The notes beneath the pieces were generated by a model that was given only the letters and a program-made list of their open reading frames with translations, was not told the origin of the DNA and searched no databases. Of a DNA stretch of 64,000 nt, positions 24,101 to 62,817 are shown piece after piece. Both the position numbers and the translations under genes were made by a program. The DNA is from Craspedostauros australis. Its lineage: Eukaryota. The stretch is taken from NCBI GenBank assembly GCA_030167865.1, contig JALAGF010003307.1:1-64000 (forward strand), written 5' to 3'. Positions within the stretch are counted from its first letter, which is position 1, and the number at the start of each line of letters is the position of its first letter.

Positions 24101-26257
24101 AAGCTCCTCGTAGAGTCTGCGAACATCCCTCTCCGTCAGCGGGCCACGCCCCAGCTTGATCCAGCCGATGCCATCGCAAAACCTCTCGCGGATCTCCACC
24201 GTCTGGATCGCGGCAACAGCGAGGATTGTCTTGCCGTTGCCTGCCTTGTCGCCGTGCCTGGATGTGATCGATGTAACGATGGAGTTGTTCGGTGTTCCGT
24301 CGTCAGCCTCGCGCATGGACTCATCCATCAGACAGCTCACCACCTGCTTCATCAGGCGATGCCGGTGGATATACTCTATCGGCAGCTTCGGAACGGCGGA
24401 TGGGATGTCCGCCTTCGGTCTCCAGTCCGGCTTGAGCTCCTTGAGATCGTTTTCCTGGTTGGCTTCCCTGTTCTTCATCTTCTCTAATCTGAGTCCGCGG
24501 ATGACGTCCACGAGCTCGTCCTTTGGCTTGATGGCTTGCGCCTGCTGTTGCTGCACGGGTTGGCTCGGTTTACTGGCTGAGGCTGTGACGAGGCCGTTGG
24601 GTATGGCACCTTGCGGTTCCACCTGCGTCTTTTGCACTGCCAGGCTGCCTGCTCCGGTCGGGTTGGTCTGCGTGGAGAATCCATCCTCCGCGGCTCCTCC
24701 CGCCGATTTGGTCGTGTCTTCCTCCTTGGAGGAACGGCGGTTTCGTAGGGTCGGTGTGGGCGTTGCTCTTCTGGCGCGCACCCTGCCCGCGGCTGGCAGG
24801 AGCTGACGACCACGGCTGAATACGCTTCCCCTACCTGATGTGTCCGCAGTGGAGACGCTGGATGCGTCGCTGTCCGAGTCCATCGCGGAGTCGCTGCTTT
24901 CGCCCCCGTCGAAGCCACCTTCCGTGACGGCACCGACCGCCTTCTCTACTTTGTCGTTCCATGATTTGATGCGCTCGATGTTCTTGGCGTTGTTGGGGGA
25001 CGGTAGACGGAAGTTGAGCTGGTAGCGACGCTCACGGATGACAAGCATGTCCTCCAGCACCTTGTTGCATTTTTTGATGACGTCGCGCAGTCCCTTGAAA
25101 GTGGTGTCATCCTTGAGCACACCTCGGGTGGCGTTGTCCACAGCCACCTCGTCGACCAGAGCCAGAAGCTGTGCATGTGCGGGTGGCATTTGCGAGAGGA
25201 GTGCATGGAGAGCAGAGTAGAGCAGAGCAAGTATTTTTAAGGCAATGATGTGATGGATCAAATGTGTGAGACGGGAGAATAACGCTGATCGCTGCGATAG
25301 ATGATGCTATGTCATCGGCGGGCGTACAAGGATAATGTGATGCAACACCAACATTTATCACATGGCACAGAGCAGTATGAAATCTTCGTTCATGTGATCC
25401 AATGCAGCGTGGTGCAATGCGATGAAGTGCAATGGCTTGTGGTGTGGTGCGCGTGTTCCAAGATGATGAATGGATGATGCATGATGAATGGATGATGCAT
25501 GATGAATGGATGATACATGATGAGTGGTGCATGATGGATGAATGATGGACGGTTGCATACAACTTACGAAATCAATGTTGCCAATGAACTCCCACAGGAC
25601 CATTCTGGCATTGAACTCCGACTGGCTGAGGTTCTCAGCACCCTCCTCGCCTTCTTTCTTGGGTTGAGTGGGAGTCTTCCCGACCGCAGCGTAGGCATCC
25701 TTGAGTCCGACAGCCAGCTCGTGGAACCGCTTGAGATTCTGCGGCGCCTTTCGCGGCAGCTTGGATGTGGAGCCGGGTGCCTTCTGATTGTAGTAGTCAT
25801 CGCTGCGGCAGGATCTGACGGTGATGATGATGTCCGGCTGATCGTCGTCGTCGCCTGAATCCCTCTGTCGGCGACTGGCAGACCTCGATCTGGAGCGGGA
25901 CAACGATCGCAGGCGGCGAGCAAAGCCGCCCTTTTTCTTCTTTTTGGACTGCCTCTCGCTGGTGGTGCTGGCCGAGGTGCTCGTGCTTGCGGTGCTGCTG
26001 CCGCCGCTGCGCTGGGCCCCGGCCTCGCTCCTGGACCGACGGCGCTCCGCATCGCTGCGGTCGCTGCGGCTGTCCCTGGAGACCTGCGAGGCGTCGTCTG
26101 CCGTGACGGCATCGCTGGGCGTCGTCCCAGACAGGATGCTCGCCTGCTCCGACGATTCGCTGCGATCCTCCTTCTTGGAGCTGCTCTTTCCGAAGCCATT
26201 CATGAGCCGGCGGATGGAGCTCCCGCGCTTGGACTTTTCCGGCTTCGATTCCGACAT
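21188..26257 (-). CDS. NLR-like NB-ARC (STAND) ATPase with N-terminal helical domain and C-terminal TPR array; exons 26257-25568 and 25168-21188 (~1556 aa)
   Basis: P-loop GDKAGNGKT, Walker B LICLDDV, sensor ILITTR, CGNSPLAV (GxP), VMHDSL (MHD) and kinesin-light-chain-like TPRs. Phase-0 intron TTC|GTAAGT...CACAG|CTT. Confidence 0.85.
25463..25516. repeat. 18-bp tandem repeat ATGATGAATGGATGATGC x3 (intronic)
   Basis: Two exact copies and one with a single mismatch, inside the predicted intron 25169-25567. Confidence 0.9.
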
Positions 26258-34006: not shown

Positions 34007-35831
34007 ATGCTGCGTTGCAAATCCGTCTGCTCGGTCTTGATTCTGCTCCTCGCATTGTCATTGAACGACCAGCTCCAGGTCTCCGCCATCTCCCAGGCCA
34101 GCGGCGCTGCCTCCACCAATTTCTCACCGACTGTCACCTTGGCTTCCACCAACAAACAACACCAACAACAACCCAAACTGTCGTCCACAGTAGCTCAAGT
34201 GTCACCTGCAGGAGCAACTGGAACGCTAGAAACAACCACAACACCAACACCAGAGTGAGTGCAACATCAAACGAATTGGAAGGCAGATCTCCTCGAGATT
34301 CTCGCTCATGATCATATTCGTTGAATCGTCATCGTTGAGTCCTGGAAATCATAGTCAGCGCTACCACGTCGCTGTCACCGAAAGGGTGAGGCTTGGGTCT
34401 GAGGACGGATACGTGGTTGGATTCATCGCTGTCGATGCGCCAAGGTTGATCCAACCGGGCCGGTCGCTCGATCAGTCATTCAATCGACCCTTCAATCAAT
34501 GAACTGATCAATGAACCAGATGCATTGCCTGACCTAATGAGATCGTGCCTCGTTGAAATCCAAATGCCATCCTCTCTTGCCTGATGCATCGTCGCCGGTG
34601 CTGGTGCTGGTGCCGGTGCCATCACCACTGCGACGATCGCAATCACACGGACCAAACCATTTGATACCATGCCATACCATACACGAACAAATACAAAGAA
34701 CTCGCATCATCGCACTCAACTCATCTCGTCTACTCTAACCCAACTGGATTCGTCTCGATTTATCATCGCGCCGATCACGATCTTCGCACGTGCTGATTCT
34801 TCATGTCACTCCTTCCCGTCTTCAGAGCGACACAGCCCTCCGCAGCCATGGCCAAAGCACCCCCAGCCACACCCTCGGGAGGAATCCCGGATGGCATGAA
34901 GCTCCTCATCGGAGCCGGCGGTATCTATGGAGCCTTCTTGTACTACGGATCCCTTCAGGAGGATGTCTTCCGTTACGTTGCGGCTGATGGAACCACCTTC
35001 AAGCAGGCCTGGTTCCTCCAGGTCCTCGAGGCGCTCGCCAACGTCATCATCGGATTTGTCGGAATGCAGGTGACCGGCGCCACCAAGGGAATTCCACTTC
35101 GAATGTTCGGGATCTCCGGTGCCGCCCAGGTCTCCGCCAAGGCATGCACCAGTCTCGCCCTTGCCAACGGACTGTCCTTCCCCGTCGCCACACTGGCAAA
35201 GAGCGGAAAGATGGCCCCAGTCATGGTCGGATCGCTCCTCCTTGGCGGGGCCAAGTACGAGCTGCGCGAGTACCTGCAGGTCGCCGCCATCATCGGTGGT
35301 ACCGCCATCGTCTCCCTCGGCAAGAAGAAGGGAGGCGGCGCGGAGAGCTCCACCCTCGGCGTTGTCTATATCATCATGTCCCTCGTGCTCGACGGAGTCA
35401 CGGCTGGATTCCAAAAGCGACTCAAGACGGAGACAGCCAAGCTGGGCGTCAAGCCAAAGCCATACGATTTCATGTTCTGGACCAACCTGTTCATGTGCCT
35501 CACCGCCACTGTCATCGCGGGTGGATTGGGACAGATCAACTCCGGCGTCTCCTTCCTCGTCGCCAACCCTGATATCATGTCCAAGATCGTCAAGTTCGCC
35601 GTCTGCTCCGCCGTCGGTCAGTCCTTCATCTTCTACACCATCGCCAACTTCGATCCGCTCATCTTGTCGACCGTCACCACGACCCGCAAGATCTTTTCCG
35701 TTCTCCTCTCCATCTTCCTCAAGGGCCATTCCCTGTCCGTCATGGGCTGGTCCGGAATCGGCCTGGCTGTTTCCGGCATCCTGTCGGAGCTACAAGCCAA
35801 AACAAGATCCAAGAAGAAGCATACGAACTAG
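34007..35831 (+). CDS. UAA-family nucleotide-sugar transporter (SLC35B1/UTR-like), copy A; core 34848-35831, probable upstream signal-peptide exon 34007-34254
   Basis: YGSLQEDVF, LSFPVATLAKSGKMAPVM, LDGVTAGFQ, SAVGQSFIF, TVTTTRKIFSVLLS, with about 10 TM segments. The phase-2 intron GA|GTGAGT...TTCAG|A restores the frame; the upstream exon is less certain than the core. Confidence 0.85.
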
Positions 35832-46841: not shown

Positions 46842-48173
46842 TCAGTGCCGATGAGCGTGGTTCATCTTTCTCGACTTGTCCTGAAGCTCGGACATGATGC
46901 CGCCGCAGGCAAGCGCCATGCCAGACCAACCCATGCTGGAGAGCGTGTGGCCCTTCATGAAGATGGAGAGCAGCACGGAGAAGATCTTTCGCGTCGTGGT
47001 CACCGTTGTGAGAACCAGCGGGTCGAAATGGGCGATCGTAAAGAAGATGAACGATTGGCCGATGGCAGAGCAGGCGATGAACTTGATGATGCTGGACATG
47101 ATCTCGGGGTTGTTCATCAGGTAGGAGGTGGCGGGGCTCCATTCGCCCAGCACGATGGCGACGGAGGCGGCAACGAAGCACATGGAGACGTTGGTCCAGA
47201 ACATGAAGTCGTACGATTTCACCTTCACCCCCGCATCGGCGGTGTCACGTTTCAGGCGCTTTTGGAATCCCGCCGTGATTCCGTCCAGCACGAGCGACAG
47301 GGTGATGTAGCACAGCCCCATCATGGAATCGGAAACCTCCGACGACTTCTTTTTCCCCATGGAGACGATGGCCGTCCCCCCGATGATGGCTGCGACCTGC
47401 AGGTAGTCACGGATATCGTACTGCGCACCGCCAAGCAACGCCGAACCGAACATGACGGGCGCCATCTTGCCGCTCTTTGCCAGCGTCGCGATCGGGAACG
47501 AAAGTCCGTTGGCGAGCGCCAGGCTGGTGCACGCCTTGGCCGTCACCTGCGATGCGCCAGAGATGTAGAACATGCGCAGCGGAATTCCCTTGGTCGGTCC
47601 GTTCACGTGCATGCCAACGAACGCAACGATGACGTTGGCGAACGCTTCGAGCGCCTGCAGGAACCAGGCCTGCTGGAACGTCTCCCCCTCTGCTGACACG
47701 TAGCGGAATACATCCTCCTGCAACGACCCGTAGTATAGGAACACCGCGTAGATCCCTCCTGCGCCAATGAGCAGCTTGAGTCCAGGGGGCATGCCACCGG
47801 CTTGTGCGGCGTGTCCCGTCGGAAGCGGTGAGGGTGACGAGGCCGCTGACAGCGACCCAACGAGCGAGGACGATCCCTTCGTCGGCGTGGATGTCACGCT
47901 CAGCGATCCGGTGCCCGATGCGGATGGCGGCATGCTGTGATGCTGCTGCTGTTGCTGCTGCTGTTGCATCGATGATTTGCCCTGTTGTCTGAACTTGTTG
48001 GCTCCTCCCATTTCCACCTCCAGGCTCGGGTTCGCGGTCGTCATGGTGGCCGTCATGGTCGTAGCCATGGCCGGTCCCGCTGTCGCATCCTTGCTCTGTC
48101 GCATCTCTTCGATCTGGCTGATGGTCATCAAGGGAATCGTCTCCATCCCAAGGCTGTTGCTTGCGTTCATCAT
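46842..48173 (-). CDS. UAA-family nucleotide-sugar transporter, copy B (paralog of 34848-35831) with long S/T/Q-rich N-terminus
   Basis: Same motifs as copy A (KLLIGAGGIY, YYGSLQEDVFRY, ATLAKSGKMAPVM, TVTTTRKIFSVLLSIF). Likely ATG at 48173. Confidence 0.88.
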   Translation of the reverse strand: MMNASNSLGMETIPLMTISQIEEMRQSKDATAGPAMATTMTATMTTANPSLEVEMGGANKFRQQGKSSMQQQQQQQQHHSMPPSASGTGSLSVTSTPTKGSSSLVGSLSAASSPSPLPTGHAAQAGGMPPGLKLLIGAGGIYAVFLYYGSLQEDVFRYVSAEGETFQQAWFLQALEAFANVIVAFVGMHVNGPTKGIPLRMFYISGASQVTAKACTSLALANGLSFPIATLAKSGKMAPVMFGSALLGGAQYDIRDYLQVAAIIGGTAIVSMGKKKSSEVSDSMMGLCYITLSLVLDGITAGFQKRLKRDTADAGVKVKSYDFMFWTNVSMCFVAASVAIVLGEWSPATSYLMNNPEIMSSIIKFIACSAIGQSFIFFTIAHFDPLVLTTVTTTRKIFSVLLSIFMKGHTLSSMGWSGMALACGGIMSELQDKSRKMNHAHRH

Positions 48174-49169
48174 GGTCTGGGATACTCTGTGGAGTATCGT
48201 GGTATATCTGTCGTACGAGGATGCTGGTCGTTGGTGTTGATGTTGTGTGCTCGTATGAAGTTCTGTAGAGATTGAATCGAAGAGAGGAGAGGGGAGCGGA
48301 GCCGAGCGTAAGAGGGTGGAGGAGAGCCGAGCGGAAGTCGATGGTGTCGGTGGTGGTTGTGTTGTCTTGGTTTTTCTTTTTTGGAATCGTGTTGTGTGTT
48401 TGAATTCCCAACGGATAATTTTGCGGCAATTGATACCTCTCCATCTTCTTTGCGTGTGTGACAGCATTGGAATTGTGATTGGCTGCGCTCCTCTCTCTCC
48501 TTGGTACCACAAAGTGCACAAAGGTACTACGATATTTCTGTTCTTTTTCCTCTCCTTTGCGTGACGTTCGAGCTCTTCGTACAAACGGCCGTGGTTGGTG
48601 CGCGCAGAGCGTGATCCACATCCACCACGATCGCGGTTCACACCAGTCAACACCCCAACTCGTCGATGTGATTTGCATGTGTGTCCTGCGCGGGCATGGC
48701 TCGTGACTGGGAGCGAAGCCAAGTCCGACTCAACACAAATCATAAACAACACCAGCCTCGCCAAAAAAACACGAAGGAATTGTACTCGTGTGCGCATTGG
48801 TCCACGCATCATGTTCGAACAGAGAATGCACGATCGTTCATGACCCGATCGAGCTCACTTTATCAGTATCCCAGTGGTAGTTCGTACGCGTATTTCGGTC
48901 ACGCTGTTACTATACCACCCCGCCGTACCCGTGCCTGAGTACGATAATACAATAGGTGGTAAAGTGCGGTACAACAACAGTAAGTCTTACGGTGAACTAG
49001 AGTATGGTTGATTAGATTGAACAAACAGTTAAGGGGTCCGGTGTTGCGTTTGGTGGCGGCTCAAGCAGCGATCGATTGTATGGTTCAATACACAATGATG
49101 ATGTCACGTTGTGGTCCTACCACGAACACCTTGGTGACAGGAAGAGGGGATGTCGGGACATGGAGGTGC

Positions 49170-50807: not shown

Positions 50808-52575
50808 GGTTGTGCGTATTGTGCGCTGGGGCAGTGTGCGGTGTACGTTGGGATTTGGGGCAGATCTGTGAGAAAAACGATTGTGTCCACACCAACATGA
50901 TGGACGATGCGCTTGGGTGGGTTCATTTGGACAAACATGAACATGCACTTGCACCCGCAGTTGCGTCGGCACCGCCGTACGCCCGCTTTGGCGATATGCC
51001 TATGCTGCGTCTCAGCTGATTTTCCCTGGAGGAAAGGCATGCCCCAGGACAAGCGTGCGTCGTGGGCAGGGTCAATCTGGGGATGAGAGTCCACATCAGG
51101 TCAGACCGGATCTGACTTGAGCACACCACACCAACCGACCGACCATCCACGGCGGGGCAGTTGGGCGGCGTCCACTGCAACCGGAGCTCCTCCGTCGCCG
51201 TCAGTTGGTCGCCATGGTGAACAACATAATTGGGGTTCATTGGACGTACCGTTGTTGATGGCAGCTGGGGAATTGGTCTGAGCTTTCTTGATCAACTTGA
51301 CGTGAGATTGTGATGCGTTGAAATGGATGTCTGCGTGTTGCTGAGGTACTCGTACTGCTCGTTGTGCGGTATAACTGCGAGTATCTGCGCGTGCTCGTGT
51401 GGTGTGACCATTGTAGCGTCCTCGCACATGAGTGAATTGATTCCCCAAACGCTCCAACTGTCGCTCCTCCCTGTCACGCTGCGTATGTATGCGACACGCT
51501 GTTGCCATACAGTACGTCGCAACAGCGTGCGAAACGAAGAAAGCAAGGAGAGGGAAGGGAGGAAACGAGGAAGGATCTCGCTGCGAACGGCCAGCGACTT
51601 CCAGAAGCATCGCCTGTCATTTCTCCTGTTCTGTCTGACTTGCATCTGTTCTCGCCAACGGCTAGATGTCGATTTGGAGATGCTCTCTGTGTTCCCCCAA
51701 CGCAACGAATTGGTACGTTAGGACGTGCCGACGACTTTTGTATTTAGGAATAGCGACCTTGTCGACAAAGTGCTTGTATTCATACATTAATGTCATTAAT
51801 GTACTCCGATAACCGCCAACGAGCCAAGATACTGCCAAGAAATGAGAGCGTCGGTTATTGAGAAGCCATCCATCGAGCAGCCAAAAGCACGTGCTGGCCT
51901 CAACCGAAACAAGCAAACCGAGCCAACATTGGAATGAGTGACACGTCAGCATCCGTTCAATCACCCAATGAACCTTTTCGAAAACCCAACACGACTGGGT
52001 TTCAAAAGTACCATTCTCTGAATTCGACGACAATAGTACTAGTGATGCGGTACCGAATTACGGTTCACAGAAGCGCGCAGAAACGGAGACTTGTTTCTGC
52101 GACAGGAGGATTTGGCTTGACACCAATGACATCGACCCCGCCATTTTGCGAAAGGCGAAAGGTCAGTGACCATCGGCCAGTGGTCAATGGAAGAGAGGAC
52201 CGCAAAGACCGCCGCTGCCCTCATACTAACGCTCCGACTCGCACTCGCACATGCAATCGCAATCGCACACGCGCTCCAACTTCGCTTGCAGCTGCTGTGC
52301 CCCATGCATTGAGGAGCTTGCAGCATCGGTCGGACATCCGCATCCGCATCCGCATCCGCAATCACAAGCATGACGTGAACCTGCATACTCCATAGTACTC
52401 GACTATACTACCATCATCTTCTATTCCACTCCATCATAGAATACCATACTTTACCATACCGTACCATACCAAGCCAAACCATTCCAGACTCCACCCTGCC
52501 GTACGTATTCCAGCTTCAATCTGGTCTTGCGAATGTCCCATACGTCGCCGATGCACACAAGAGGAGAGACGCGAG

Positions 52576-54033
52576 ATGGAGGATGAGGCACAGCCAACGC
52601 GTCACTTCCACTGCTACCTGCTGAAAAGCGACGATCCCAAGCATCCCATCAAGACGTACGTCGGCTTCACCACCAACCCACACCGGCGATTGCGGCAGCA
52701 CAACGGCGACTTGAAGCACGGCGGCGCATTCCGCACCAGGAAATCCGGACGGCCATGGAGATTCGTCGCCATCATTCATGGGTTCCCCACGCAAAAGTCG
52801 GCTCTGCAGTTCGAATGGGCCTGGCAGCACTGCGATGGATCCATCGCCGTGCGAGGGCGGTTGGGCCGCGACTATGCCAAGACCATGAAACGCAAGCGCG
52901 GTGCTGTCGGTCAGCTGGCGATCATGCACATGCTCTTGACGCATTGCGTTCAAGAGATCTGCGGTTGCTCTCACCTCACCGTGTACTTCTTCGAGCAGCA
53001 GTACAAGACACGGGTCCTCAAACTGATCGAGTCGGATCGGCAATTCTTTCCCCAGAGCATCGAACTGGAAGTTGCGAGCCATCTATCCGAGTTACCATTT
53101 ATGAAACAGCATGCAAAACGGACGAGAAAGCCCAGCAGAGCAGGTCTAAGGAATGATGAACAACCCGAAGAGTCCCCACGAGTACGTGCGCCAATGCCAG
53201 TGCCCGCACCGAGGCCTGCAGCCGTTGACAGAGCACAAGCCGGGGGGTGCCCACTGCAAGAGCAACCATGCACCAGCAGCATCCCTACCAACGATTGCAT
53301 GTGGTGCCGTCGTCCGATCCGTGCAGCGGAGGAGATTGGTGCCACTGTCTGTGATTTTTGCGGCGAGATGATGCACGAAGTTTGTTCCGACATTCACGCG
53401 GAAAATCAGAGTGGAATGTGCCCATCGTGCAAAGCGCCATTCGGCTCCAACGCGGACGATACTAGCATGGATGAAGATAGCGATGGCGCAGATTTCATGT
53501 GGCTTAATGCTGCCTGCTGTTCTCACAGCACGGATGCATCTGAAAGCACTTCGAGAGACGCTATTCCAGAAGTCGTCGAGGGGTTGCCACAAACGTGTGA
53601 TACTGAAGCACAAATAGAAGCAGCAGCAGCAGGAGATGATGAAGAAAAAGATGATGATCATGATGATGATGAAAAAGATAACATGAATTATCCACCGTGG
53701 CAGAGTCATGCAACGAGCAGTGCTCACCCACAACACCCAAGAACAGCAACGGCATCACCAAAACCAACACCACGGTCGCGAGTACCAGCAGTAGCACTAG
53801 AACGAGCACAGGAAGGCCGCAACGCTCCGGCAGTGACAGGACCGCACGAAACAAATCACGATGACCAATCAACCAACAGCGACGTCAGTTTCAATCCTCT
53901 CTTCATGATGCAGGACGACACTGACGAAGACAGCGATGGAATGTTCCACGGCGCCCATCAACAGCCGATCGGGCAGACAAGTATCCATGAACACGTCACA
54001 TGCAGCAACCGAGAAGTGATTGAACTAGACTAA
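52576..54033 (+). CDS. SLX1: structure-specific endonuclease SLX1 (GIY-YIG plus RING/PHD-like finger)
   Basis: CYLLKS..TYVGFTTNPHRRLRQHNG..GGAFRT..RPW..HGFP..ALQFEWAWQH. Finger CMWC..CDFC..HEVC..CPSC. Confidence 0.92.
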   Translation: MEDEAQPTRHFHCYLLKSDDPKHPIKTYVGFTTNPHRRLRQHNGDLKHGGAFRTRKSGRPWRFVAIIHGFPTQKSALQFEWAWQHCDGSIAVRGRLGRDYAKTMKRKRGAVGQLAIMHMLLTHCVQEICGCSHLTVYFFEQQYKTRVLKLIESDRQFFPQSIELEVASHLSELPFMKQHAKRTRKPSRAGLRNDEQPEESPRVRAPMPVPAPRPAAVDRAQAGGCPLQEQPCTSSIPTNDCMWCRRPIRAAEEIGATVCDFCGEMMHEVCSDIHAENQSGMCPSCKAPFGSNADDTSMDEDSDGADFMWLNAACCSHSTDASESTSRDAIPEVVEGLPQTCDTEAQIEAAAAGDDEEKDDDHDDDEKDNMNYPPWQSHATSSAHPQHPRTATASPKPTPRSRVPAVALERAQEGRNAPAVTGPHETNHDDQSTNSDVSFNPLFMMQDDTDEDSDGMFHGAHQQPIGQTSIHEHVTCSNREVIELD

Positions 54034-54401
54034 AGCGGGGGGAGAGAGACGTCTCTCTACCTGTCTACGTCCGCACAATGCCCATGTCACACCCGTCTAC
54101 GCGCATGGTACCATACATAATCGTACCATACCCGTTATAGCTATCAGCATACATCCAAGGATGCATTTACAGATCTCTCACTCTCTCCGGAGACAGAGAG
54201 AGTGAGGGCGACAGAATTCTACAACGCAAGAGCCCAATCCCAGTCCCATCTGTGGAAGTTCCAAGAATCTCAACAGCACCCTTGCAGCCGCACGAACGAA
54301 CAAGAACGAAGAGAGCAACAGAAAGATACGAAAGCGGACAACAACAGCTTCCTCTCCGCACCACTCACGAGTACATTCATCTTCGTTCAACACAACTATT
54401 C

Positions 54402-54435
<34 letters not shown>
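54402..54435. repeat. (TAT)11 microsatellite just outside the left TSD
   Basis: Direct reading; it ends 7 bp before the TSD. Confidence 0.9.
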
Positions 54436-54442
54436 GACGCTC

Positions 54443-54459
54443 TACTCCAGTGGGCATCA
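54443..54459 (+). repeat. target-site duplication, left copy TACTCCAGTGGGCATCA
   Basis: Exact 17-bp direct repeat of 62801-62817; flanking bases differ on both sides. Confidence 0.95.
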
Positions 54460-54627
54460 ATAAATAAAAACGCAAAGATTAAACCCTCTTATGAGGCTGC
54501 GCCGAAGGCGCTTTTCTCCGCCTCCTTTCAACTTCGCGCCTGGCGCGAAGGGAGCACGGAATCCATAGATTGCTCTGTCGTTGTACGTATGTATGTATGT
54601 ATGTGTGCGTGTATGCGTCGCTGCCTT

Positions 54628-57600
54628 CTAGCTGGGTTCCGGGTTCACATGCCTGCACTGTAGCCATCGGAAGAGGACGCCTGTGGCGGCCGCCTCACCC
54701 AATTGCCGTGCTGCTTGCTCCACCCACACCGCAACCTGTGCAACTTGCGCCTCTGCTGCCGGAGCCGTCTGCAAAAGTCGTCGATAGGAATCTGGGTCTT
54801 TCTCGAGGCGAAGCCGAAGTGATGTAGCCCTTTCGTGGAGGGCGTGGACCATTTCGGACTCGGCCGAGCTGTCACCCTGGAACATGGCGTCATTTCTGGC
54901 CGACCAGTGCTCCCAGGCGATGTGCCATATTCGCCGGACGACCTGTTGTGCCCATGTCGGAGCTGTTCGCCGGGTCTTCTGCTGCTGTAGGAACTGCTGT
55001 TGGATCGCTATCCATTTCGACGACAGGATGCCCTTCCGCAACGCTTGCGGGCCTACCGACTCCTGACTCACGGCTGCCTCGTGGAGAGGACTACCGGGAG
55101 AGGACATCTGCAGATATGTGGACCCTTCCAGCTGACTCCGTAGCATTGTCAACAGCAGCGTTGTGACCGCCGGCGCCGTAGGGTAACGTCGCAGCCATCC
55201 CCCGAGCTCTCGAAGACGCCGCTTCGAAACTCCAAGTCGATCCGCTCCAGGGCAACGCCAGAAATGGGTCGCATCTTCCTGTCTGCCACAGCTAGGACAC
55301 AGGTCGGACTTCCGTAACCCCCACTGCTTCATGCGCTTGCCCACTGGCGCCTCTCCGGTAACAAGCTTGACCGTAAGAAGCCGCCTGACCTGATCCAGCT
55401 CTCGCAAGGACCGGCCGACGATCTCCCACTCGACCTGTTCCGGCCGCCGTACCACACCTCGTTGCCCAAGGACGTGAACCATGCCTTCGCATAGTGGACC
55501 TCGCGACACAGCCGAGTATGTTATCCTGGTGATTTTCCCAAGCGAGACGAACGATACGTGCTCTCCGTTTATGTGCCCACTGTGGACCTCGCTCACCGGT
55601 ATCGACTCTCGCGCGATGCGGGCCAACTTGTCAGCCACCACATTCATGCGTGCCCACCGGTCTAGGTTGCCCCATCCGGCGTCGTCGTCCTGATGGCCTT
55701 TCACATGCCGTCCCTGTACTGTAATGGGTATCGTGCTGCTCAGTGTTCGTACCGCCCTCTGCAAGTCGGCATCCGTGGACTTGGGGGACAGAGCCCACTC
55801 GTGATCCAGGGCTTTGAGAGCCCCCAGGTTGTCACATCCAAGAACAATGGCGCCGTCGACGATCCCGTAGGCCATGCATATGGCATTGAGCATCACCAGC
55901 ACTCCGTATATTCCAGCCAGTTCCGCCCGCTGCGATTGCATGACTTCGTTTGTCGCTGGTGCCAGGTTGAGGACAAGTAGCTGTGCTCCGCGTCCTTCAT
56001 GATCGGCCAGAATGATCGCCCCAGACGCTCCTTTCCCTTCCGCCACTGAGCCGTCGCTGCAGGCTACTGCCGAACCTATCCGTATGGACGCCGCTATCGT
56101 TTCCCATTCACCTGCCTTTTCGTAGCGCTGCACTGACCATTTTGCTGACTGTGGCATTTCGCGCAGTAGTTGATCCACTGTCGCCTCGTCGGCGCGCACC
56201 GCCTGCAAGCCTTCACCAGCTCCCGTAACCACTATCCGATCTCCTTCCGTGTAGCCATCGATAATATGCGTTGTCATTCCCACTGCACCATCGGATGGCT
56301 CGTAGAGTTTGGCGCGCCTTCGCCGCGGAACCCGCCGGAGACAGAACTCGGGTTGCTCGCGCCGCATGAGACGATCGCTTCCCGGATCCCATAGAACCGC
56401 CGGCACCTGCGATGAGTACTGCCTCCACTTGCCCAACGGACGGGCCAGCCGGGCGACTCTTGTCCTGGAGACTTGAAACAGCCTTCGAACGACTTGGCCC
56501 CACTGCCTCCAGTTGGCCGGACTTACTGATCCTATCGGTGGCCATGCCATTCGGGATGTTCTGAGCGGGATGAGTTCCGGACTCTCCGCTGCCGGGTGGA
56601 GGTGTTCTCCATCTACGCACGTGACATCCGACATCCAGAAGACTCGCTTTTTGATGCGGCACAGGTTGATGGCCTGCTCGACTTTCCTGTCGAGCTTGAG
56701 GGCTCTGACGCGCTCCATGATTGGCGCATCATGTTCTCGAGGGGCATGCAGTATCCTTTGCTCCCACTGCACTGTTACGCCCACCCTTGCTGCTTCCTGC
56801 CATACCGCCTTCATCCACGAGTCCGTCGCTAGATGTTCCCACCGCGCTGGGTCCTGTTGGAATACCTCTGGCATCCCCACCTGCAACGTCATGATCTCCA
56901 GTGAGGTCCTCATGAGCTTTCCAGTGAGGGTGTGCTGCCCCCAGTGCCTTGCGAGCATCTCGAGGTGCTTTGCCACCTGCACGTAGTAGAGGTGTTGCAC
57001 GCCCAATCCAAAACGCTCGAGAGGGCCAAACACTATCCTTCGCGACATATTGCGTTGGACTCCAGCCGCTGGCAACGCTGCCTGGAGCACCGGCCTCATG
57101 ATTCTCTCTGTGGCCTCCTTCGTGAATGTGGAACTGGTCAAAGGATACTCCAGAGTTTTCCAGATGGTGGCCTTCATGGCGATCCACGCGTGTGTTCTTA
57201 GCATGCGACTCCGCCGCACCTTGTCTGCCCACTTCTCCGCTTTCCCGGTGTAGTATGCCTCGTTGTCGTCTTGCACGCCGTCGTGCCGAACCATGACTCC
57301 CAGAGCTTTCCTGGCTTGGTCCACTTGCAGTCTCAAAAGGGTAGCTCTTTGCTGACTGTCGGGTTGCCGGATATTGATGTCTCCTGGCTGTTCGTCGATA
57401 CGTTTGTACTGCCATTGATTCCCGTCCCACTTGAAGACCATGAGGTACCAGTAGCTTTTGCTGGGCTCCAAAGCACCCCCTGTCGCTCTCAACATTCCTT
57501 CCCACGAGTCCACAACCCGTTGTACTTCCGCCGTGCATGCTTCGGGATCGTCGACGTCCGCTTGGACCGAGTGAATAAGGTCCGTATCGTCCACGAACGA

Positions 57601-60096
57601 AAAACACACGAGTTTGGTCGTCTCTGCCGTGATGGGACTCGTCGCGCCGAACCCGTAGCCTTTGGCTGCCATCGCTTGCATGATTGGAGAGCTCATGGCC
57701 ACCCATCCAGCCGGCGATATACCAAGACCTTGTAGCAAACCCTGCAGCTTTGTGCCACGTCGCGGATATGTTCTGGACGATTTTCCGAATCCGGTGAGAA
57801 CGTGGTGCTGCATGGACTGAATGGCGGAGGTGACACTGCGGCTCACCGTGGTTGGAACGCCGAGACGCTGCATGCTGAGTTCTAGCGGCACGTGAGCCAT
57901 TCGATCATAGCAACTTTTTGCGTCGTTGGAGCATATGCAACTGGGCGCAGCCGTCATCCTCACAATGTCATCCGTCATCCGGTTGTTCAGGCTGACTTCT
58001 GCCGCACTTCGCTGCTTGCGGCTGCCGTATTGCTCCTCGGGCAGCATCTGGTGCTTCTCTGCATGCTTCATCATCACTTTGCCTATCCATTTCAAGTTGG
58101 CGTTGAAATCCCCTTCCACCAGGCTGATGGTTCGAAATCTGGAGACTCGGAAGTTGCCGGGTTCCTTCAGCAAGGTGATATCCGTGCATACTAGCCACCG
58201 CTCCAGGTTGTAGCCCGTTCGCAGTGAGATCTCCCGCATGGTGGCGTCGACTTGCGCTAGCTGCTCGCATTGCGCGTTGGCTTTCCACAGGCCGAAGTGT
58301 AAACCCGACGGCCCAGAAGTTGTCTTCTCTCGTGCCTTGGCCCACAGTCGCTGATGGCTTTCCAGCGTGACGTCCATGTCGGATTCCTCCCACGGTATGT
58401 TGTTCGTTGGAGCCAGAGCTTGAATCAAGGCATCCTCGTGCTGCCCCAGCCTGTGACCGTAGCGCCGCTTGATGCCCTGCGCCCCTCCTTGCCTCATTTC
58501 TCTTTCCATTGCTGAGTTTTGCAGGGGAGTCACATATGCCTGCCGATACTTCGCTTCGTTCGCCTTCATACATTGTGCTATGACCGCATGTTCTTTTTCG
58601 AAGACCTCTTCCTCTCCTTCCGCGTTGTTGGCAATCACCATCGTTACTTTGCCGCTGCTGTGTTCACCAATTGCTGCTCGGATAGCTCTGAACGTTTCCA
58701 CCACCTCCTCGCGCTTCTGGATGGTTGTTATTGCCGCTTCCGACGTGATGTTCCCGGCCTTGGCCATTTCTTCTGCCCTGGTTTGCAGGAATGTTTGTCT
58801 GTGTTTCAGTGCGTTCTTTTTCGCCGTCTTCCATCGTGCGTGCGCTCGCTTTCGCTTATCCTCTAGTTCATCCATGTTGAGCGTGGCCGTCCTCGTAGTG
58901 ATTCCTGCTTGCTTTTTGGCTCTCTCGTACCATCGCGAGCTTACTTTCTTGCCTCTCCTTCGCTTCCACGCCAGGTTCCAAAACTGCTTCTCCATCGCCC
59001 TGCGTTTGACCTCCGGAGAATATGGAACTTGCCCAGTGTATATTGTGCGTGCTCCTCTTTCTGCCTGCAGCATGATGCTCATTCTTTCTCGATCGATGGT
59101 TTCCATTGCGGTTGCTTGCCCTGTAGTGATTGTGTGTGCTGCTCCGATGGCTGCTCTGAGCGCCACTAAGCGTTGCGGGATCCTAGCTTGTTGGTACTGC
59201 TTCCGAACCTCGGCCTTGTACTTTCGAACCGTGATTGGTCGGTTTAGCTGTACTCTCCGCCCTTCGAATTTGGGAGTCGGCTTGCTGATAGATCCAAATA
59301 TCGATTCTTGAGATATCTCAATCCACGCCGTTCTGTGGTCCCACATTCCAAACTCGCTGTATCCTGCGCGTATGACTTGTACCGATGCTGGCACCCATAT
59401 GCCGTCGATCACCCTGTTCGAATTCGCCCTCACATTTGTTGATATGCCTGGGGCTTGCGGGTGTCGACTGAGGATCGCCTCCTTCATGTGCTGGCGGTCC
59501 ATCATGGTCGCCATTTGGGAGCGAACCACCGGCATGTTAATATCACCTCCGACAATGACTGCCTCTCCGTCTTGCCTCCATTCCTGGATGGCTGCTTCCA
59601 AATCTTGGATTAATAGCTCGATGGGAGCAGTGTCGATGCCTTGGGACTCCAACCACAATGCCTGCTGATTATAGACTGTGCCAGCGCTCTGACCCCCCTT
59701 GTTGGGGACATAAACGCTCACAAGTCGCACCGTGGTGTCCTGTCTGCCTCTTATGGCCATGCTTGTCCACCTTCCCAGTTTGCGGGGATCGTTGGCCAGA
59801 CTCTTGTATCTGCCTGCAACGTTTCCGATGATTACGCATGCCGTGCCTCCCCACTGTCGAATTCCACCAAGCTTCTCTCTTTCGTTGTATGCCAGAGCGT
59901 GCCTTTCTGTATGCACGTGTTTGTTTGCTCTCGCTTTCCACGAGTTCATCTTGCCCACCTTGGACCAGTTGACTCCTATCTCTGATAGCAAGGCCACGTC
60001 GAATTTCTTCTGCTTGACCCATTGCCACAGATCGTCGTTCTTCCAATGTTTCGATTCCGCCTGCAGGCACCCCACGTTAAGAGCTGCTATTCTCAA
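54628..60096 (-). CDS. LINE ORF2: AP endonuclease, reverse transcriptase, RNase H, CCHC zinc finger (TTG start in the track; frame open from 60318)
   Basis: APE: LNVG, LLSE, SVYVP, GGDIN, IDGIW, DH. RT: SGPSG, FRTISL, QYGSR, NDAKSCYD, QGLLQG..SP, FVDD, KALGV. RNase H: SDGS, RAEL, CDN, HVKGHQD, N..AD.LA. Finger: CPSC..ED..H..C. Confidence 0.93.
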   Translation of the reverse strand: MRIAALNVGCLQAESKHWKNDDLWQWVKQKKFDVALLSEIGVNWSKVGKMNSWKARANKHVHTERHALAYNEREKLGGIRQWGGTACVIIGNVAGRYKSLANDPRKLGRWTSMAIRGRQDTTVRLVSVYVPNKGGQSAGTVYNQQALWLESQGIDTAPIELLIQDLEAAIQEWRQDGEAVIVGGDINMPVVRSQMATMMDRQHMKEAILSRHPQAPGISTNVRANSNRVIDGIWVPASVQVIRAGYSEFGMWDHRTAWIEISQESIFGSISKPTPKFEGRRVQLNRPITVRKYKAEVRKQYQQARIPQRLVALRAAIGAAHTITTGQATAMETIDRERMSIMLQAERGARTIYTGQVPYSPEVKRRAMEKQFWNLAWKRRRGKKVSSRWYERAKKQAGITTRTATLNMDELEDKRKRAHARWKTAKKNALKHRQTFLQTRAEEMAKAGNITSEAAITTIQKREEVVETFRAIRAAIGEHSSGKVTMVIANNAEGEEEVFEKEHAVIAQCMKANEAKYRQAYVTPLQNSAMEREMRQGGAQGIKRRYGHRLGQHEDALIQALAPTNNIPWEESDMDVTLESHQRLWAKAREKTTSGPSGLHFGLWKANAQCEQLAQVDATMREISLRTGYNLERWLVCTDITLLKEPGNFRVSRFRTISLVEGDFNANLKWIGKVMMKHAEKHQMLPEEQYGSRKQRSAAEVSLNNRMTDDIVRMTAAPSCICSNDAKSCYDRMAHVPLELSMQRLGVPTTVSRSVTSAIQSMQHHVLTGFGKSSRTYPRRGTKLQGLLQGLGISPAGWVAMSSPIMQAMAAKGYGFGATSPITAETTKLVCFSFVDDTDLIHSVQADVDDPEACTAEVQRVVDSWEGMLRATGGALEPSKSYWYLMVFKWDGNQWQYKRIDEQPGDINIRQPDSQQRATLLRLQVDQARKALGVMVRHDGVQDDNEAYYTGKAEKWADKVRRSRMLRTHAWIAMKATIWKTLEYPLTSSTFTKEATERIMRPVLQAALPAAGVQRNMSRRIVFGPLERFGLGVQHLYYVQVAKHLEMLARHWGQHTLTGKLMRTSLEIMTLQVGMPEVFQQDPARWEHLATDSWMKAVWQEAARVGVTVQWEQRILHAPREHDAPIMERVRALKLDRKVEQAINLCRIKKRVFWMSDVTCVDGEHLHPAAESPELIPLRTSRMAWPPIGSVSPANWRQWGQVVRRLFQVSRTRVARLARPLGKWRQYSSQVPAVLWDPGSDRLMRREQPEFCLRRVPRRRRAKLYEPSDGAVGMTTHIIDGYTEGDRIVVTGAGEGLQAVRADEATVDQLLREMPQSAKWSVQRYEKAGEWETIAASIRIGSAVACSDGSVAEGKGASGAIILADHEGRGAQLLVLNLAPATNEVMQSQRAELAGIYGVLVMLNAICMAYGIVDGAIVLGCDNLGALKALDHEWALSPKSTDADLQRAVRTLSSTIPITVQGRHVKGHQDDDAGWGNLDRWARMNVVADKLARIARESIPVSEVHSGHINGEHVSFVSLGKITRITYSAVSRGPLCEGMVHVLGQRGVVRRPEQVEWEIVGRSLRELDQVRRLLTVKLVTGEAPVGKRMKQWGLRKSDLCPSCGRQEDATHFWRCPGADRLGVSKRRLRELGGWLRRYPTAPAVTTLLLTMLRSQLEGSTYLQMSSPGSPLHEAAVSQESVGPQALRKGILSSKWIAIQQQFLQQQKTRRTAPTWAQQVVRRIWHIAWEHWSARNDAMFQGDSSAESEMVHALHERATSLRLRLEKDPDSYRRLLQTAPAAEAQVAQVAVWVEQAARQLGEAAATGVLFRWLQCRHVNPEPS

Positions 60097-60238
60097 TACC
60101 GAACTGCTCTTTGTACGAGGGGAGTCGCCCCAGTGCCGATCGTGGAGGTTGTGCCCTTCCTGGCGCCCTTCCTCCGGGGTTGCATCCGTTAGGCTTGCGG
60201 GGGTGGTTGGTGATGCTTCTCCTGCCCCCAGCCTCGCT

Positions 60239-62671
60239 TTATTCTTGATCCTCGCCCCTACCCTTGCTTGAGGCAGGTGGCGTGGCCGCGGACGCTTCCA
60301 GTTGGGCGCGCAGTGCCGCTATGATTGCTTCTTGGTTGGTGATCGTGCTCGATTGTTCTTGCATTCGGACTCGAGTCGCCGCCAACTCTTGTGCTTCTCT
60401 TGCCATCTTCATTGCTTCTTCGATTTCCGCTTCGATTTCATCTGCCTCTGTTTGAGATTCCGGTATGGTGTATCGTGACGAAGCTGCCGACTTGCCGTAT
60501 TCCGTCCCAAAAGTTTTGAAACTCTCGTCCTCCAGCCTGGCCTTCTTTCGCTTCGGGGATGCGCTCTCGCTCTCCATGAAGTCGATGCCTTCGATGACGA
60601 CATTTCCAAACCCTTCGTCCAAAAGGAAGTCCATTTCTTCTTCAGTCTCGACGTCCACATATTCCCCACTGTCATCCTTTATCATGGAGCAACTCATTGC
60701 CACGATATCTTCGGAGAACCACTTGTTCGTGGATGCGTTGATTTCCGTAGAACACCTGATTGCGATTGTGTGGATGAGCCCTACCGCTTGCGCGTAGCGT
60801 TCCTCGAAAGCCACGATATGGATCGCGTCTTCTTTACCATCTGCCATGTGCGTTGTGCTGACGTCATGGATGAGAGGATTGCCTTCGCTGGTTTGCTGCG
60901 CCAGGAACTCCCGAAGAGTGATGGTGCCCGACTCTGGATCCTTGGTGTCCAACGCGAAGTCACCTTTGAGCTGTTCGTACTTCAGTCTGCGCACGTAGCT
61001 CTGATGTTTCCGGATCATGGCTTGAACTTTCATCGCCGTCTTCGCTCCCATAACCGACGTGCCTGGTTTGGGCACGTATCTGTAGTTGAGGCCTTTGCGG
61101 TCGCCATCCTTGGTGTTGAAGATTTTGCCCAGGAGCTTTGATGCCCTGCGCGCGTCTTTCACATCCGCATGTAGATGAAGTGCCATCCATGGAGCATTGT
61201 GCCAGCTTCCGCCGTTTTGCAAGTGACTTGCCTTCACTTCCTCGGACACCTTTCCCACGAACTTCACCCTGCCGCCGACTTTGAGCTTGGCTCTCTTCTC
61301 TGCCAATAGCTGATTTATGACTGTTAGAGTTTGTTTCGCTTTTGTGAAGTTACCGGAGTAGGCCATGAAGCCTATCTCGGTCGTGTGCTCCGCATCACGC
61401 AGATCTTGGATGTAGGCGTACTCGCCCTCGTGGTACGCACCCTCAAGCTCTGTGTTCCAGCTTGTGAATGCTTGCATGTCAATGTTCGAAGACATCAGGA
61501 CCTGCAAGTATACGTCCTCGCTTTTCGATGTTGGGTTGGCTCTGCCGATGTAATACCGGAGATCCTTCCACATAGCGGGAATGTCTGAGTCGGTGATGAT
61601 GCAGCCCTTGGCCTTGTTCTTCTTGTACCATGGGCTGATTGTCAAGCTTTGATCCATGCCTTTGGCTTCGTCGTACCATTGCCGAAAGCGTTCCTGGAAA
61701 TCCCTCACTGGCGTTTTTGTGCCTTTGGGGATTTTGAGGCGCATTTCGAATCTCTCGTAGTATCGGCACTTTGGGTTCGACATCTGAGGTTTCTTTTTCT
61801 GATGCTTGGTCCATCCGTCATCTTTGGTCTCATTGTTGTTGGAGTTTCCGTCGCTGTCTGTTGGCTCCCTTGCTACGCTTGGGTTTCCATCCTTGTCTCG
61901 TGGCGCTGGCGAGTCGATCTTCGTGCTTGTGGTGTACGCCGTCAGATTCGCTTGCTTGAGCGGTTTCTTCGACACCAAAGCTACGAGATCATAGCTGTCG
62001 TCGTCGCTGTCGACCGTCATCGCGTCTGCTCCCGAGTCCACTTCCGGTGGAGGTTTCTCTGCCATGTATTGGCACCCCATGTAGTTGGTTGCTGCCGCCC
62101 ACAGAATTGTCATCTGGTTTGCTATCATGACAGCCCCTCCTGGCTTTATGGTGTCTGTGAAGCATTGGACTGGGTCTGTGAGCGAAAGATCAGCGATCAA
62201 TTGCTTGATGGCTACTCTGGACGGATCGTCTGGTGGAACTTTGGATTTCCCCAGTTTCGTGGTACGCCCGTCCATGACGGTTTGGAAGAAGACTGTCATT
62301 TCCTTGATCTTCGGCATGCTTGCTGACACCATCGATGTATCGGTCTTCTCCCACATGGCTTTCTTGGTGAGTGCCTTCTTGACTTGGTTGTGCATTGATC
62401 GTTCGCCTTCCCCGTACTTCTCGCCTGGTTCGAATCCCTTTGCCTGGTGTGCGATCGTGTCGCTGAGTTTTTTCCACCGCGCTGTGTTCGGATCTTTCCA
62501 CTCTGTGGCTACTTCTCCTCGTTTCTCCATCAATTCTTCCTCGCTGAGGCTCGGATTTGGCTTGGGAGGTGGCTTGGGAGTTGTGGTTTGCACCGCTGGT
62601 CCTTGCACCTCGGCCATCTCGACGTCATCAGCTTTGTCCTCCATGATCCTGACATGTTTGGTTGCCTTCAT
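60239..62671 (-). CDS. LINE ORF1 protein (810 aa) with C-terminal coiled coil
   Basis: ATG-started intact ORF inside the TSD-bounded element, directly upstream of ORF2. Heptad-like EAEIEEAMKMAREAQELA...IIAALRAQLE. No CCHC knuckle seen. Confidence 0.88.
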   Translation of the reverse strand: MKATKHVRIMEDKADDVEMAEVQGPAVQTTTPKPPPKPNPSLSEEELMEKRGEVATEWKDPNTARWKKLSDTIAHQAKGFEPGEKYGEGERSMHNQVKKALTKKAMWEKTDTSMVSASMPKIKEMTVFFQTVMDGRTTKLGKSKVPPDDPSRVAIKQLIADLSLTDPVQCFTDTIKPGGAVMIANQMTILWAAATNYMGCQYMAEKPPPEVDSGADAMTVDSDDDSYDLVALVSKKPLKQANLTAYTTSTKIDSPAPRDKDGNPSVAREPTDSDGNSNNNETKDDGWTKHQKKKPQMSNPKCRYYERFEMRLKIPKGTKTPVRDFQERFRQWYDEAKGMDQSLTISPWYKKNKAKGCIITDSDIPAMWKDLRYYIGRANPTSKSEDVYLQVLMSSNIDMQAFTSWNTELEGAYHEGEYAYIQDLRDAEHTTEIGFMAYSGNFTKAKQTLTVINQLLAEKRAKLKVGGRVKFVGKVSEEVKASHLQNGGSWHNAPWMALHLHADVKDARRASKLLGKIFNTKDGDRKGLNYRYVPKPGTSVMGAKTAMKVQAMIRKHQSYVRRLKYEQLKGDFALDTKDPESGTITLREFLAQQTSEGNPLIHDVSTTHMADGKEDAIHIVAFEERYAQAVGLIHTIAIRCSTEINASTNKWFSEDIVAMSCSMIKDDSGEYVDVETEEEMDFLLDEGFGNVVIEGIDFMESESASPKRKKARLEDESFKTFGTEYGKSAASSRYTIPESQTEADEIEAEIEEAMKMAREAQELAATRVRMQEQSSTITNQEAIIAALRAQLEASAATPPASSKGRGEDQE

Positions 62672-62800
62672 CGTCGTTTTGGATTTCGTTCGTGTTACGT
62701 AGAATTCGCTGTAGATTTTGTACTGGTGTTTGTTGATGTGTTGTGTTTTGTTGTTTTACTAGTGTTATCGTTGTTTGAGTTTTTTCGGGTTCTGGTATTG

Positions 62801-62817
62801 TACTCCAGTGGGCATCA
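62801..62817 (+). repeat. target-site duplication, right copy TACTCCAGTGGGCATCA
   Basis: Exact match to 54443-54459. Confidence 0.95.

Follow-up and report, generated by a model that had tools for sequence, protein, structure and literature searches.

The stretch of DNA analysed here, called the window throughout, comprises positions 1 to 64,000 of contig JALAGF010003307.1 from the Craspedostauros australis assembly GCA_030167865.1, and all coordinates of the element described below are positions in it. The minus strand of the window carries, from 62800 to 54460, a long interspersed nuclear element (LINE) with two intact open reading frames (ORFs). The second of these, ORF2, overlaps the first in a different frame and has no usable AUG, as an earlier note made from the letters alone had pointed out. 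Comparison with related elements tentatively favours a restart of translation that is coupled to the ORF1 stop codon and does not depend on an AUG.

Structure of the element

The element and its two frames are laid out as follows, in the direction of transcription (lengths in nucleotides, nt).

62801..62817, minus strand: 5' copy of the target-site duplication, 17 nt, exact (repeat search, 100% identity with the 3' copy)
54460..62800, minus strand: full-length retrotransposon without long terminal repeats (non-LTR), 8341 nt, the unit bracketed by both duplication copies
60239..62671, minus strand: ORF1, 810 codons from ATG 62671, plus TAA 60241-60239
54628..60318, minus strand: ORF2 open frame, 1896 codons, ending at TAG 54630-54628, with an endonuclease, a reverse transcriptase and a C-terminal Cys-Cys-His-Cys motif
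54443..54459, minus strand: 3' copy of the target-site duplication, 17 nt, exact (repeat search)

To judge from its protein domains, the element is a non-LTR retrotransposon of the apurinic endonuclease (APE) type. The reverse transcriptase of ORF2 is matched by Pfam RVT_1 at residues 726-959 (E 1.3e-9, 38.5 bits against a cut-off of 29.6), and the same domain is matched in six of the eight aligned family members. The endonuclease, at residues 81-317, gives a weak match to Exo_endo_phos (E 0.0068) that is under the Pfam cut-off; four of the eight aligned members match this domain, with a best E of 4.4e-9. All catalytic columns that are invariant in the eight-way alignment are kept by ORF2. The endonuclease columns invariant across the eight rows are present as N145, D259, N261, D327 and H328, and the invariants of the Cys-Cys-His-Cys motif as C1674, C1677, H1685 and C1689. 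Following the reverse transcriptase, the invariants D1422, E1466, D1496, H1542 and D1544 fit what we take to be the pattern of an RNase H; Pfam RNase_H is matched in none of the eight aligned members, and PF00075 is present in 71-98% of the members of more distant protein Atlas clusters. ORF1, whose frame runs from stop to stop between 62755 and 60239, matches no Pfam domain.

The element has no long terminal repeats and is a 5'-to-3' unit flanked by a target-site duplication, as expected of a LINE. The 17-nt direct repeat is read as the duplication made by insertion of the full-length element: an exact repeat of this length would arise by chance within 8.9 kb with a probability of about 0.002 (our estimate), and the four other repeat families in the window are short, imperfect, two-copy matches only. 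Because the duplication is exact, both ORFs are unbroken and every invariant catalytic column is present, the data point to a very young insertion and an intact copy. No second copy of the element is found within the 64-kb window by blastn or tblastn.

The ORF1/ORF2 junction

The junction between the two frames contains the following features, again in the direction of transcription.

60239..60318, minus strand: overlap of ORF1 and ORF2, 80 nt, ORF2 +1 relative to ORF1 ((62755-60318) mod 3 = 1)
60247..60249, minus strand: ATC, near-cognate codon in the ORF2 frame, 12 nt short of the predicted hairpin, candidate restart codon
60239..60241, minus strand: ORF1 stop TAA in the context GAA TAA A, proposed site of coupling or recoding
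60229..60231, minus strand: CTG, highest-ranking near-cognate codon in frame with ORF2, 10 nt away from the stop's first base and inside the 5' arm of the predicted hairpin, candidate restart codon
60093..60185, minus strand: mini-ORF of 30 codons in the third frame, whose TGA 60095-60093 overlaps the ORF2-frame TTG 60096-60094
60127..60132, minus strand: Trp-Gly (in HWGD) of a conserved aromatic-Gly motif, 17 and 16 residues before the endonuclease Asn
59947..59949, minus strand: first in-frame ATG of ORF2, codon 124, a start at which would omit the Asn of LNVG and the Glu of LLSE

Recalculation on the minus strand bears out the geometry given in the earlier note: ORF2 is open from 60318, overlaps ORF1 by 80 nt and lies in the +1 frame, and the mini-ORF that begins at ATG 60185 ends in a TGA overlapping TTG 60096. 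The absence of a usable AUG is likewise upheld, since the first in-frame ATG, at 59949, lies downstream of both LNVG (Asn codon 60078) and LLSE (Glu codon 59982). Past the ORF1 stop, the first ATG of all three frames is 60185 (third frame), followed by 60022 (ORF1 frame) and 59949 (ORF2 frame). An open overlap of 26 codons is unremarkable in an element with an off-frame stop frequency of 0.027 per codon (P about 0.49), and 80 open codons ahead of the Asn are mildly unusual (P about 0.11). What exceeds chance is the run of 1896 open codons without a start codon before the catalytic motifs, and a non-standard route into ORF2 is needed, as the note had argued.

In codon usage, the ORF1 frame scores best within the overlap (+2.2 against -1.0 for the ORF2 frame). 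In the linker that follows, ORF2 scores -0.2, the ORF1 frame -5.4 and the third frame, that of the mini-ORF, -10.1; the near-zero ORF2 score is a weak signal, as windows in a true frame average +9.8. The aromatic-Gly motif stands at the identical distance from the endonuclease Asn in 30 of 41 aligned rows (manual count) and is one residue off in six more. As the codons of this motif lie at 60132-60127, translation of a complete ORF2 protein has to begin upstream of 60132, and ATG 59949 is excluded as its start. The longer form of the motif, aromatic-Gly-(Asp/His/Asn) at ORF2 residues 63-66 (60132-60121), is nearly family-wide and lies outside the Pfam endonuclease match. The near-cognate codons closest to the stop in the ORF2 frame are ATC 60249, AAG 60246, AGG 60234 and CTG 60231.

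Related elements and their junctions

A protein search returned eight homologues with 28-36% identity, and a profile built from them recovered 390 related metagenome stretches, of which the best 80 (27-50% identity) were kept. The junction analysis covered 63 of the 80 loci, those with a 5'-closed ORF2 of at least 900 codons; of the 17 loci left out, L073 was restored by hand. Among the 63 loci, 15 have no ORF1 on the contig, six have both frames in the same phase and 42 have them out of frame. The junction set of 44 out-of-frame cases consists of these 42, L073 and the C. australis element. It includes near-identical pairs, namely L019/L021, L057/L058 and L075/L076 in the -1 set and L067/L073 in the +1 set. 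The neighbours in the protein Atlas are unnamed reverse transcriptase (RVT)/endonuclease clusters. Searches of PDB sequences with ORF2, with ORF1 and with the eight-row profile gave no match, and 25 pattern matches in viral contigs contain no relative. We regard the element as a recently inserted, intact LINE of a large, unclassified family in aquatic microbial eukaryotes.

ORF1 is homologous across the family. The C. australis ORF1 is 27% identical to that of L002 over 752 aa (E 9e-80) and also matches those of L003, L034, L013 and others, and the alignable part of the ORF1 tails ends a few codons short of the stop. From the ORF1 stop to the endonuclease Asn there are 54 codons in the C. australis element versus 58 in L002 and L003. 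In these two nearest relatives, the AUG of ORF2 overlaps the ORF1 stop in the -1 frame.

The -1 frame is the more common state, with 30 of the 44 junctions, and in 17 of these 30 the ORF2 AUG overlaps the stop. Ten are of the AUGA type, in which the first ATG of ORF2 begins one base ahead of the ORF1 stop, and seven of the UAAUG type, in which it begins at the third base of the stop. Variants of the overlap are CUGA in two loci, the near-identical L075 and L076, and GUGA in one, L068. These are natural non-AUG stop-start overlaps in loci whose ORFs are otherwise intact, with CTGA at L075:3687-3690 and at the same site in L076, and GTGA at L068:2241-2244. L025 and L069, also in the -1 frame, have no ATG ahead of the endonuclease Asn. 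Ribosomal -1 frameshifting was considered for these AUG-less -1 relatives and rejected, as no slippery heptamer is seen in their junction sequences.

Fusion of the two frames, named in the earlier note as an outcome that would overturn its reading, is not encountered: the 63 loci contain no fused ORF1-ORF2 (the longest frame has 2070 codons), and no longer, fused homologue of ORF1 appears among 4454 candidates, the latter being weak evidence. In four of the six same-frame loci (L014, L016, L049 and L074) the stop between the frames is an internal stop in a decayed ORF2, and the other two, L071 and L026, have no strong hairpin. In L071 the ORF1-like and ORF2 frames are in phase with a single TAA between them (L071:2098-2103) and no strong hairpin following; this locus could be a read-through arrangement or a decayed copy.

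The +1 arrangement

The +1 frame is found in 13 loci (L012, L013, L017, L022, L024, L029, L034, L035, L044, L047, L060, L067 and L073) and in the C. australis element. In this frame an ATG cannot overlap TAA, TAG or TGA, as follows from the codons themselves. Four members of this set of 14 have no AUG before the endonuclease Asn: L012, L034, L044 and the C. australis element. The ORF2-frame ATGs in the +1 loci are scattered and unconserved even within one clade, lying -134, -17 or +112 nt from the stop or being absent altogether. In the clade of L012, L017, L022, L024 and L029, the conserved peptide sequence follows the ORF1 frame up to the stop and the ORF2 frame from there on. L034 and L044 are both +1 and AUG-less with a short overlap, at 50% identity in ORF2 and 29% in ORF1. 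L035 is a decayed copy with a frameshift in its ORF1 tail compared with its sister L033.

In a maximum-likelihood tree built from 44 ORF2 rows (quick search, rooted at the midpoint), the C. australis element is sister to L002, which has ATGA, and L003, which has TAATG. This trio is in turn sister to L034, L044 and L067/L073, all of which are +1. The frame state changes four times on the tree, or three times without the decayed L035. Judged from this sample, the +1 arrangement is heritable and recurrent rather than a private accident of the C. australis copy, the direction of change being unpolarised as the root is arbitrary. A private indel, another refuting outcome that the earlier note had named, is not supported, as several lineages of the tree contain +1 loci and as L034 and L044 share the +1 state in AUG-less form. 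Translation of ORF2 from far inside ORF1 was also considered and rejected: the +1 overlaps, of 23-173 nt, fit chance. As the smallest of them is 23 nt, little ORF2-frame sequence upstream of the stop is needed.

RNA structure downstream of the ORF1 stop

Structure was assessed by predicted folding of the 60 nt after the ORF1 stop in the 44 junctions. In 38 of the 44, this segment is predicted to fold more stably than nine in ten of the element's own 60-nt windows (under the 10th percentile), with a median percentile of 0.028. It also folds better than dinucleotide shuffles, with a median z of -1.53; z is below -1 in 30 junctions, below -2 in 16 and above 0 in four. A Wilcoxon test on the 40 distinct junctions gives p 7e-10. 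The corresponding feature of the C. australis element, whose position agrees with the family-wide structure, is the following.

60191..60234, minus strand: predicted hairpin with a 10-bp stem, -15.5 kcal/mol, beginning 4 nt past the TAA; AGGCUGGGGG ... CCCCC GCA AGCCU

Past the stop, the stem begins after 6-8 nt in 10 of the 13 +1 loci, after 4 nt in the C. australis element and after 0-19 nt in the -1 loci. Evidence for pairing comes from two clades. In the +1 clade of L012, L017, L022, L024 and L029, three pairs of an 8-bp stem show compensatory double changes, and nucleotide identity is highest at +12 to +42 past the stop; in one -1 clade a 13-bp structure has two compensatory pairs. A second feature of the same +1 clade is a loop, GGCACGG, with an invariant complementary segment, CCGTGCC, some 30 nt further on. 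Both are identical in all five members despite a poorly conserved protein linker. The segments lie right after the ORF1 stop at these positions.

L012:660-715: loop and CCGTGCC
L017:1018-1072: loop and CCGTGCC
L022:2595-2650: loop and CCGTGCC
L024:3015-3070: loop and CCGTGCC
L029:3060-3115: loop and CCGTGCC

The two arms may pair in a possible H-type pseudoknot, for which the invariance of both arms leaves no covariation to be seen.

Possible routes into ORF2

The reading that we favour, to which we give a little less than an even chance, is that ORF2 is reached by a stop-coupled, AUG-independent restart. A ribosome finishing ORF1 would meet the RNA hairpin a few bases downstream and restart on the spot, in the manner of the silkworm LINE SART1, using an AUG where one overlaps the stop and another codon where none does. 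In the C. australis element a non-AUG restart would be needed because an AUG cannot overlap the stop in the +1 frame. It would take place within about 10-50 nt of TAA 60241-60239, with CTG 60231 and ATC 60249 as candidates, and would yield ORF2 as a protein of its own, about 1870 aa long and with the conserved Trp-Gly-Asp motif in it. While the anatomy of the element, the junction pattern of the family and the structure in the relatives can be read from the sequences, we infer the restart itself and the codon used. The comparison suggests that termination-coupled restart with downstream structure is a single mechanism that could cover all junction types seen. An AUG appears to be dispensable in both frames, given the AUG-less junctions of L025 and L069 (-1) and of L012, L034, L044 and the C. 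australis element (+1). Of the two mechanisms offered in the earlier note, termination-coupled restart accords better with the family, in view of the AUGA or UAAUG overlap in 17 of 30 -1 relatives and the family-wide structure; the shifty-stop +1 frameshift is less probable and has no conserved shift-prone codon before the stop.

Several observations weigh against stop-coupled restart. Its main weakness is that the +1 loci have no conserved near-cognate codon in common close to the stop; L034, L044 and L067 have no ORF2-frame CUG, GUG, UUG, ACG or AUN within 8 nt upstream of the stop. Local G+C richness explains part of the percentile signal of the structure, and the shuffle z exceeds -0.5 in 11 of the 44 junctions, including those of the C. 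australis element, L006, L009, L010, L013, L019, L034, L057 and L060. The C. australis hairpin taken alone is non-significant (z -0.50, with 29% of shuffles folding equally and a 20th percentile). The relatives are unannotated metagenome contigs, some of them decayed (L035, L017, L014, L016, L049 and L074). Finally, in the Candida element Zorro3 a change of the ORF2 ATG to ACG abolished retrotransposition (PMC1965478), so that AUG-independence is not general among LINEs.

An unlikely alternative, although the strongest, is a programmed +1 frameshift at the ORF1 stop (GAA UAA A). The hairpin would hold the stop in the A site, the U would be skipped and an ORF1-ORF2 fusion would result; its length of about 2680 aa, as the earlier note had reckoned, agrees with 810 plus 1870. 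Shifty-stop +1 frameshifting occurs in antizyme, where UCC UGA U is used together with a pseudoknot, in Ty3 and in bacterial prfB. The junction resembles such sites in its +1 frame, in having a stop at the shift site and in a structure that follows within a few nt. The +1 frame of ORF2 is open across the site throughout the 80-nt overlap; the stem lies at the usual distance of a recoding stimulator, being 6-8 nt from the stop in 10 of the 13 +1 loci and 4 nt from it in the C. australis element; and the clade of L012, L017, L022, L024 and L029 has a covarying hairpin, a possible pseudoknot and a switch of conservation from the ORF1 to the ORF2 frame at the stop. However, the codon before the stop is not conserved here: eight different codons (GAA, UUG, ACG, GCC, GGU, GAU, AAA and CCU) occupy that position in the C. 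australis element and the 12 +1 loci with an intact junction, and only AAA, in the decayed L017, could re-pair in the +1 frame. A weak stop context is not consistent either. The AUG-less -1 relatives L025 and L069 would require a separate -1 shift, for which no slippery heptamer is seen, L002 and L003, the nearest relatives, begin a separate ORF2 protein at an AUG, and no fused ORF is found in the family. The review literature, as far as it is represented in our sources, describes no such case in a LINE.

A related proposal, that the hairpin or pseudoknot 4-8 nt past the stop drives a true +1 frameshift whatever the preceding codon and so gives the ORF1-ORF2 fusion, is unlikely to much the same degree, if anything a shade more so. 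If true, non-LTR retrotransposons would gain their first demonstrated case of programmed +1 frameshifting, and sister lineages would switch between restart (-1, AUGA or UAAUG) and frameshift fusion (+1) with the same RNA element.

It is quite improbable that the junction is simply defective, whether through a private mutation in this copy or its RNA template or through a homopolymer miscount in the assembly after the stop, the element being dead or supplied with ORF2 protein in trans, so that ORF2 would call for no unusual mode of translation. Only a single copy is present in the window. A G5 run at 60229-60225 and a C5 run at 60203-60199 follow the stop closely, and a miscount of one base in either would shift the frame relation. 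Junctions have decayed elsewhere in the family, as in L035 compared with its sister L033, and the nearest relatives, L002 and L003, are -1 with an AUG. On the other hand, a 17-bp duplication without a mismatch and ORFs that run unbroken for 8.2 kb speak for a working master that was copied very recently, and independent short-read assemblies show the identical +1 AUG-less state, which L034 and L044 have both kept at 50% identity. A change from -1 with an AUG to +1 without one takes at least two steps, and two private mutations in a junction of roughly 12 nt with none in 8.2 kb of ORFs are unlikely.

Two routes that bypass the stop codon are, taken together, very unlikely. Removal of a very short intron, GTAGGGGCGAGGATCAAGAATAAAG, from GT 60264 to AG 60240, would join ...AGC AAG G to CG AGG CTG in the ORF2 frame, but 25 nt is far under the usual spliceosomal size, suitable GT/AG pairs are expected by chance and no conserved GT...AG is seen in the junction sequences of the relatives. 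Structure-directed internal ribosome entry, independent of ORF1 termination, is a possibility that the cited part of a review raises for LINEs as entry resembling that at an internal ribosome entry site, at non-AUG codons (PMC3894237), but the tight link between structure and stop across the family points to dependence on termination.

The relay through the mini-ORF that the earlier note had described, in which scanning would resume after ORF1, the first AUG past the stop in any frame (60185) would lead to UGA 60095-60093, and an ORF2 protein would begin at UUG 60096, six residues before the Asn, is the least credible route: its UUGA shares the geometry of AUGA, with GUGA and CUGA variants present at the ORF1 stops of relatives, but the protein would lose the conserved aromatic-Gly motif at 60132-60127 (30 of 41 rows), which lies upstream of the UUG, the ORF2 AUG of relatives is 46-122 codons before the Asn rather than six, and among the three frames in the linker, codon usage is worst in that of the mini-ORF.

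The 3' end and the surroundings of the element

The 3' end of the element, ...AATCTTTGCGTTTTTATTTATT, resembles the 3' ends of relatives, AATC(A/C)ATGAGTTATT(T)ATT... (AATCAATGAGTTATTATT...), in 11 of the 19 loci inspected (L006, L010, L022, L036, L037, L043, L047, L050, L052, L060 and L064). The motif is followed in the family by a (TTA)n or (TTTA)n tail rather than by poly(A), and a conserved 'TAAAG(C/T)C' stem region lies upstream of it in several relatives. The motif may be the site that the reverse transcriptase recognises. An (AAT)11 microsatellite (minus-strand reading) lies at 54400-54436, beginning 7 nt past the 3' copy of the duplication. It falls outside the target-site duplication and is not the tail of the element; the LINE seems to have inserted beside it.

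The neighbouring ORFs encode, according to Pfam, a cyclin domain, two UAA-type transporters, NB-ARC/TPR and AAA domains, which marks the host as a eukaryote whose genes are long and poor in introns. About 400 nt past the 3' duplication copy, an open frame of 545 codons on the plus strand (52396-54030) contains a GIY-YIG nuclease domain (Pfam E 4.4e-13) and could be another mobile element or a host gene. The ORFs for the UAA-family nucleotide-sugar transporters, at 34797-35828 on the plus strand and 46845-48854 on the minus strand, are a paralogous pair 11 kb apart with similar C-terminal tails. Large ORFs at 1-3846 (plus strand) and 21191-25306 (minus strand) each encode both an NTPase domain (AAA_16 or NB-ARC) and TPR repeats, a STAND/NLR-like architecture.

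Comparison with known systems and significance

How ORF2 of a LINE is translated from a bicistronic RNA is still an open question in the sections cited, which present only SART1 and mammalian L1 as dissected (PMC3894237; PMC5972666). In SART1, the telomeric LINE of Bombyx mori, coupling at UAAUG needs an RNA structure downstream of the restart site (same sources, as far as cited; original work by Kojima et al. 2005). The present family resembles SART1 in that ORF2 would, in stop-coupled restart, be reached from the ORF1 stop with a structure downstream, and in the UAAUG of seven relatives, next to the AUGA of ten. The C. australis element itself differs from SART1, having no AUG at or near its stop (GAA TAA AGC) and an ORF2 in the +1 frame, and lacks the overlap that defines SART1. 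As to a structure downstream of the stop, such as SART1 has, the C. australis element shows a predicted 10-bp stem that is not significant alone (z -0.50), and the family a median z of -1.53, 38 of 44 junctions under the 10th percentile and compensatory pairs.

Human L1, for which an unconventional termination/reinitiation of ORF2 independent of an AUG is described, still retrotransposes when its ORF2 ATG is changed to another sense codon, according to the cited account (PMC1965478, citing Alisch 2006). The dispensability of the ORF2 AUG is a shared trait, and in L1 the translation of ORF2 depends on that of ORF1 in the account available. In contrast to the C. australis element, with its 80-nt overlap, +1 frame and predicted hairpin right after the stop, L1 has non-overlapping ORFs separated by a 63-nt spacer. 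TART is described in a review as having a start in the +1 frame 37 nt past the gag stop, by a mechanism given there as unknown. Victoriviruses, hypoviruses, caliciviruses and influenza B resemble members of the family in their overlapping stop and start (AUGA or UAAUG) and in restart after a long upstream ORF; in the descriptions available they differ in having tethering signals (termination upstream ribosome-binding sites, TURBS, or a pseudoknot) upstream and in using an AUG. Within the term sets searched, the literature yielded no account of this family and none of a LINE junction that is +1 and lacks an AUG.

For annotation, the result means that ORF2 of such elements is not to be called from the first ATG, as here the active-site residues of the endonuclease would be lost. 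The family offers a natural series of junctions on one homologous backbone with a shared downstream structure, running from AUGA/UAAUG through CUGA/GUGA and -1 without an AUG to +1 without an AUG. The value of the finding lies less in the single C. australis copy than in this series, which makes the translation of LINE ORF2 directly testable and bears on whether an AUG is needed, on what sets the frame, and on whether the hairpin acts via restart or via frameshifting.

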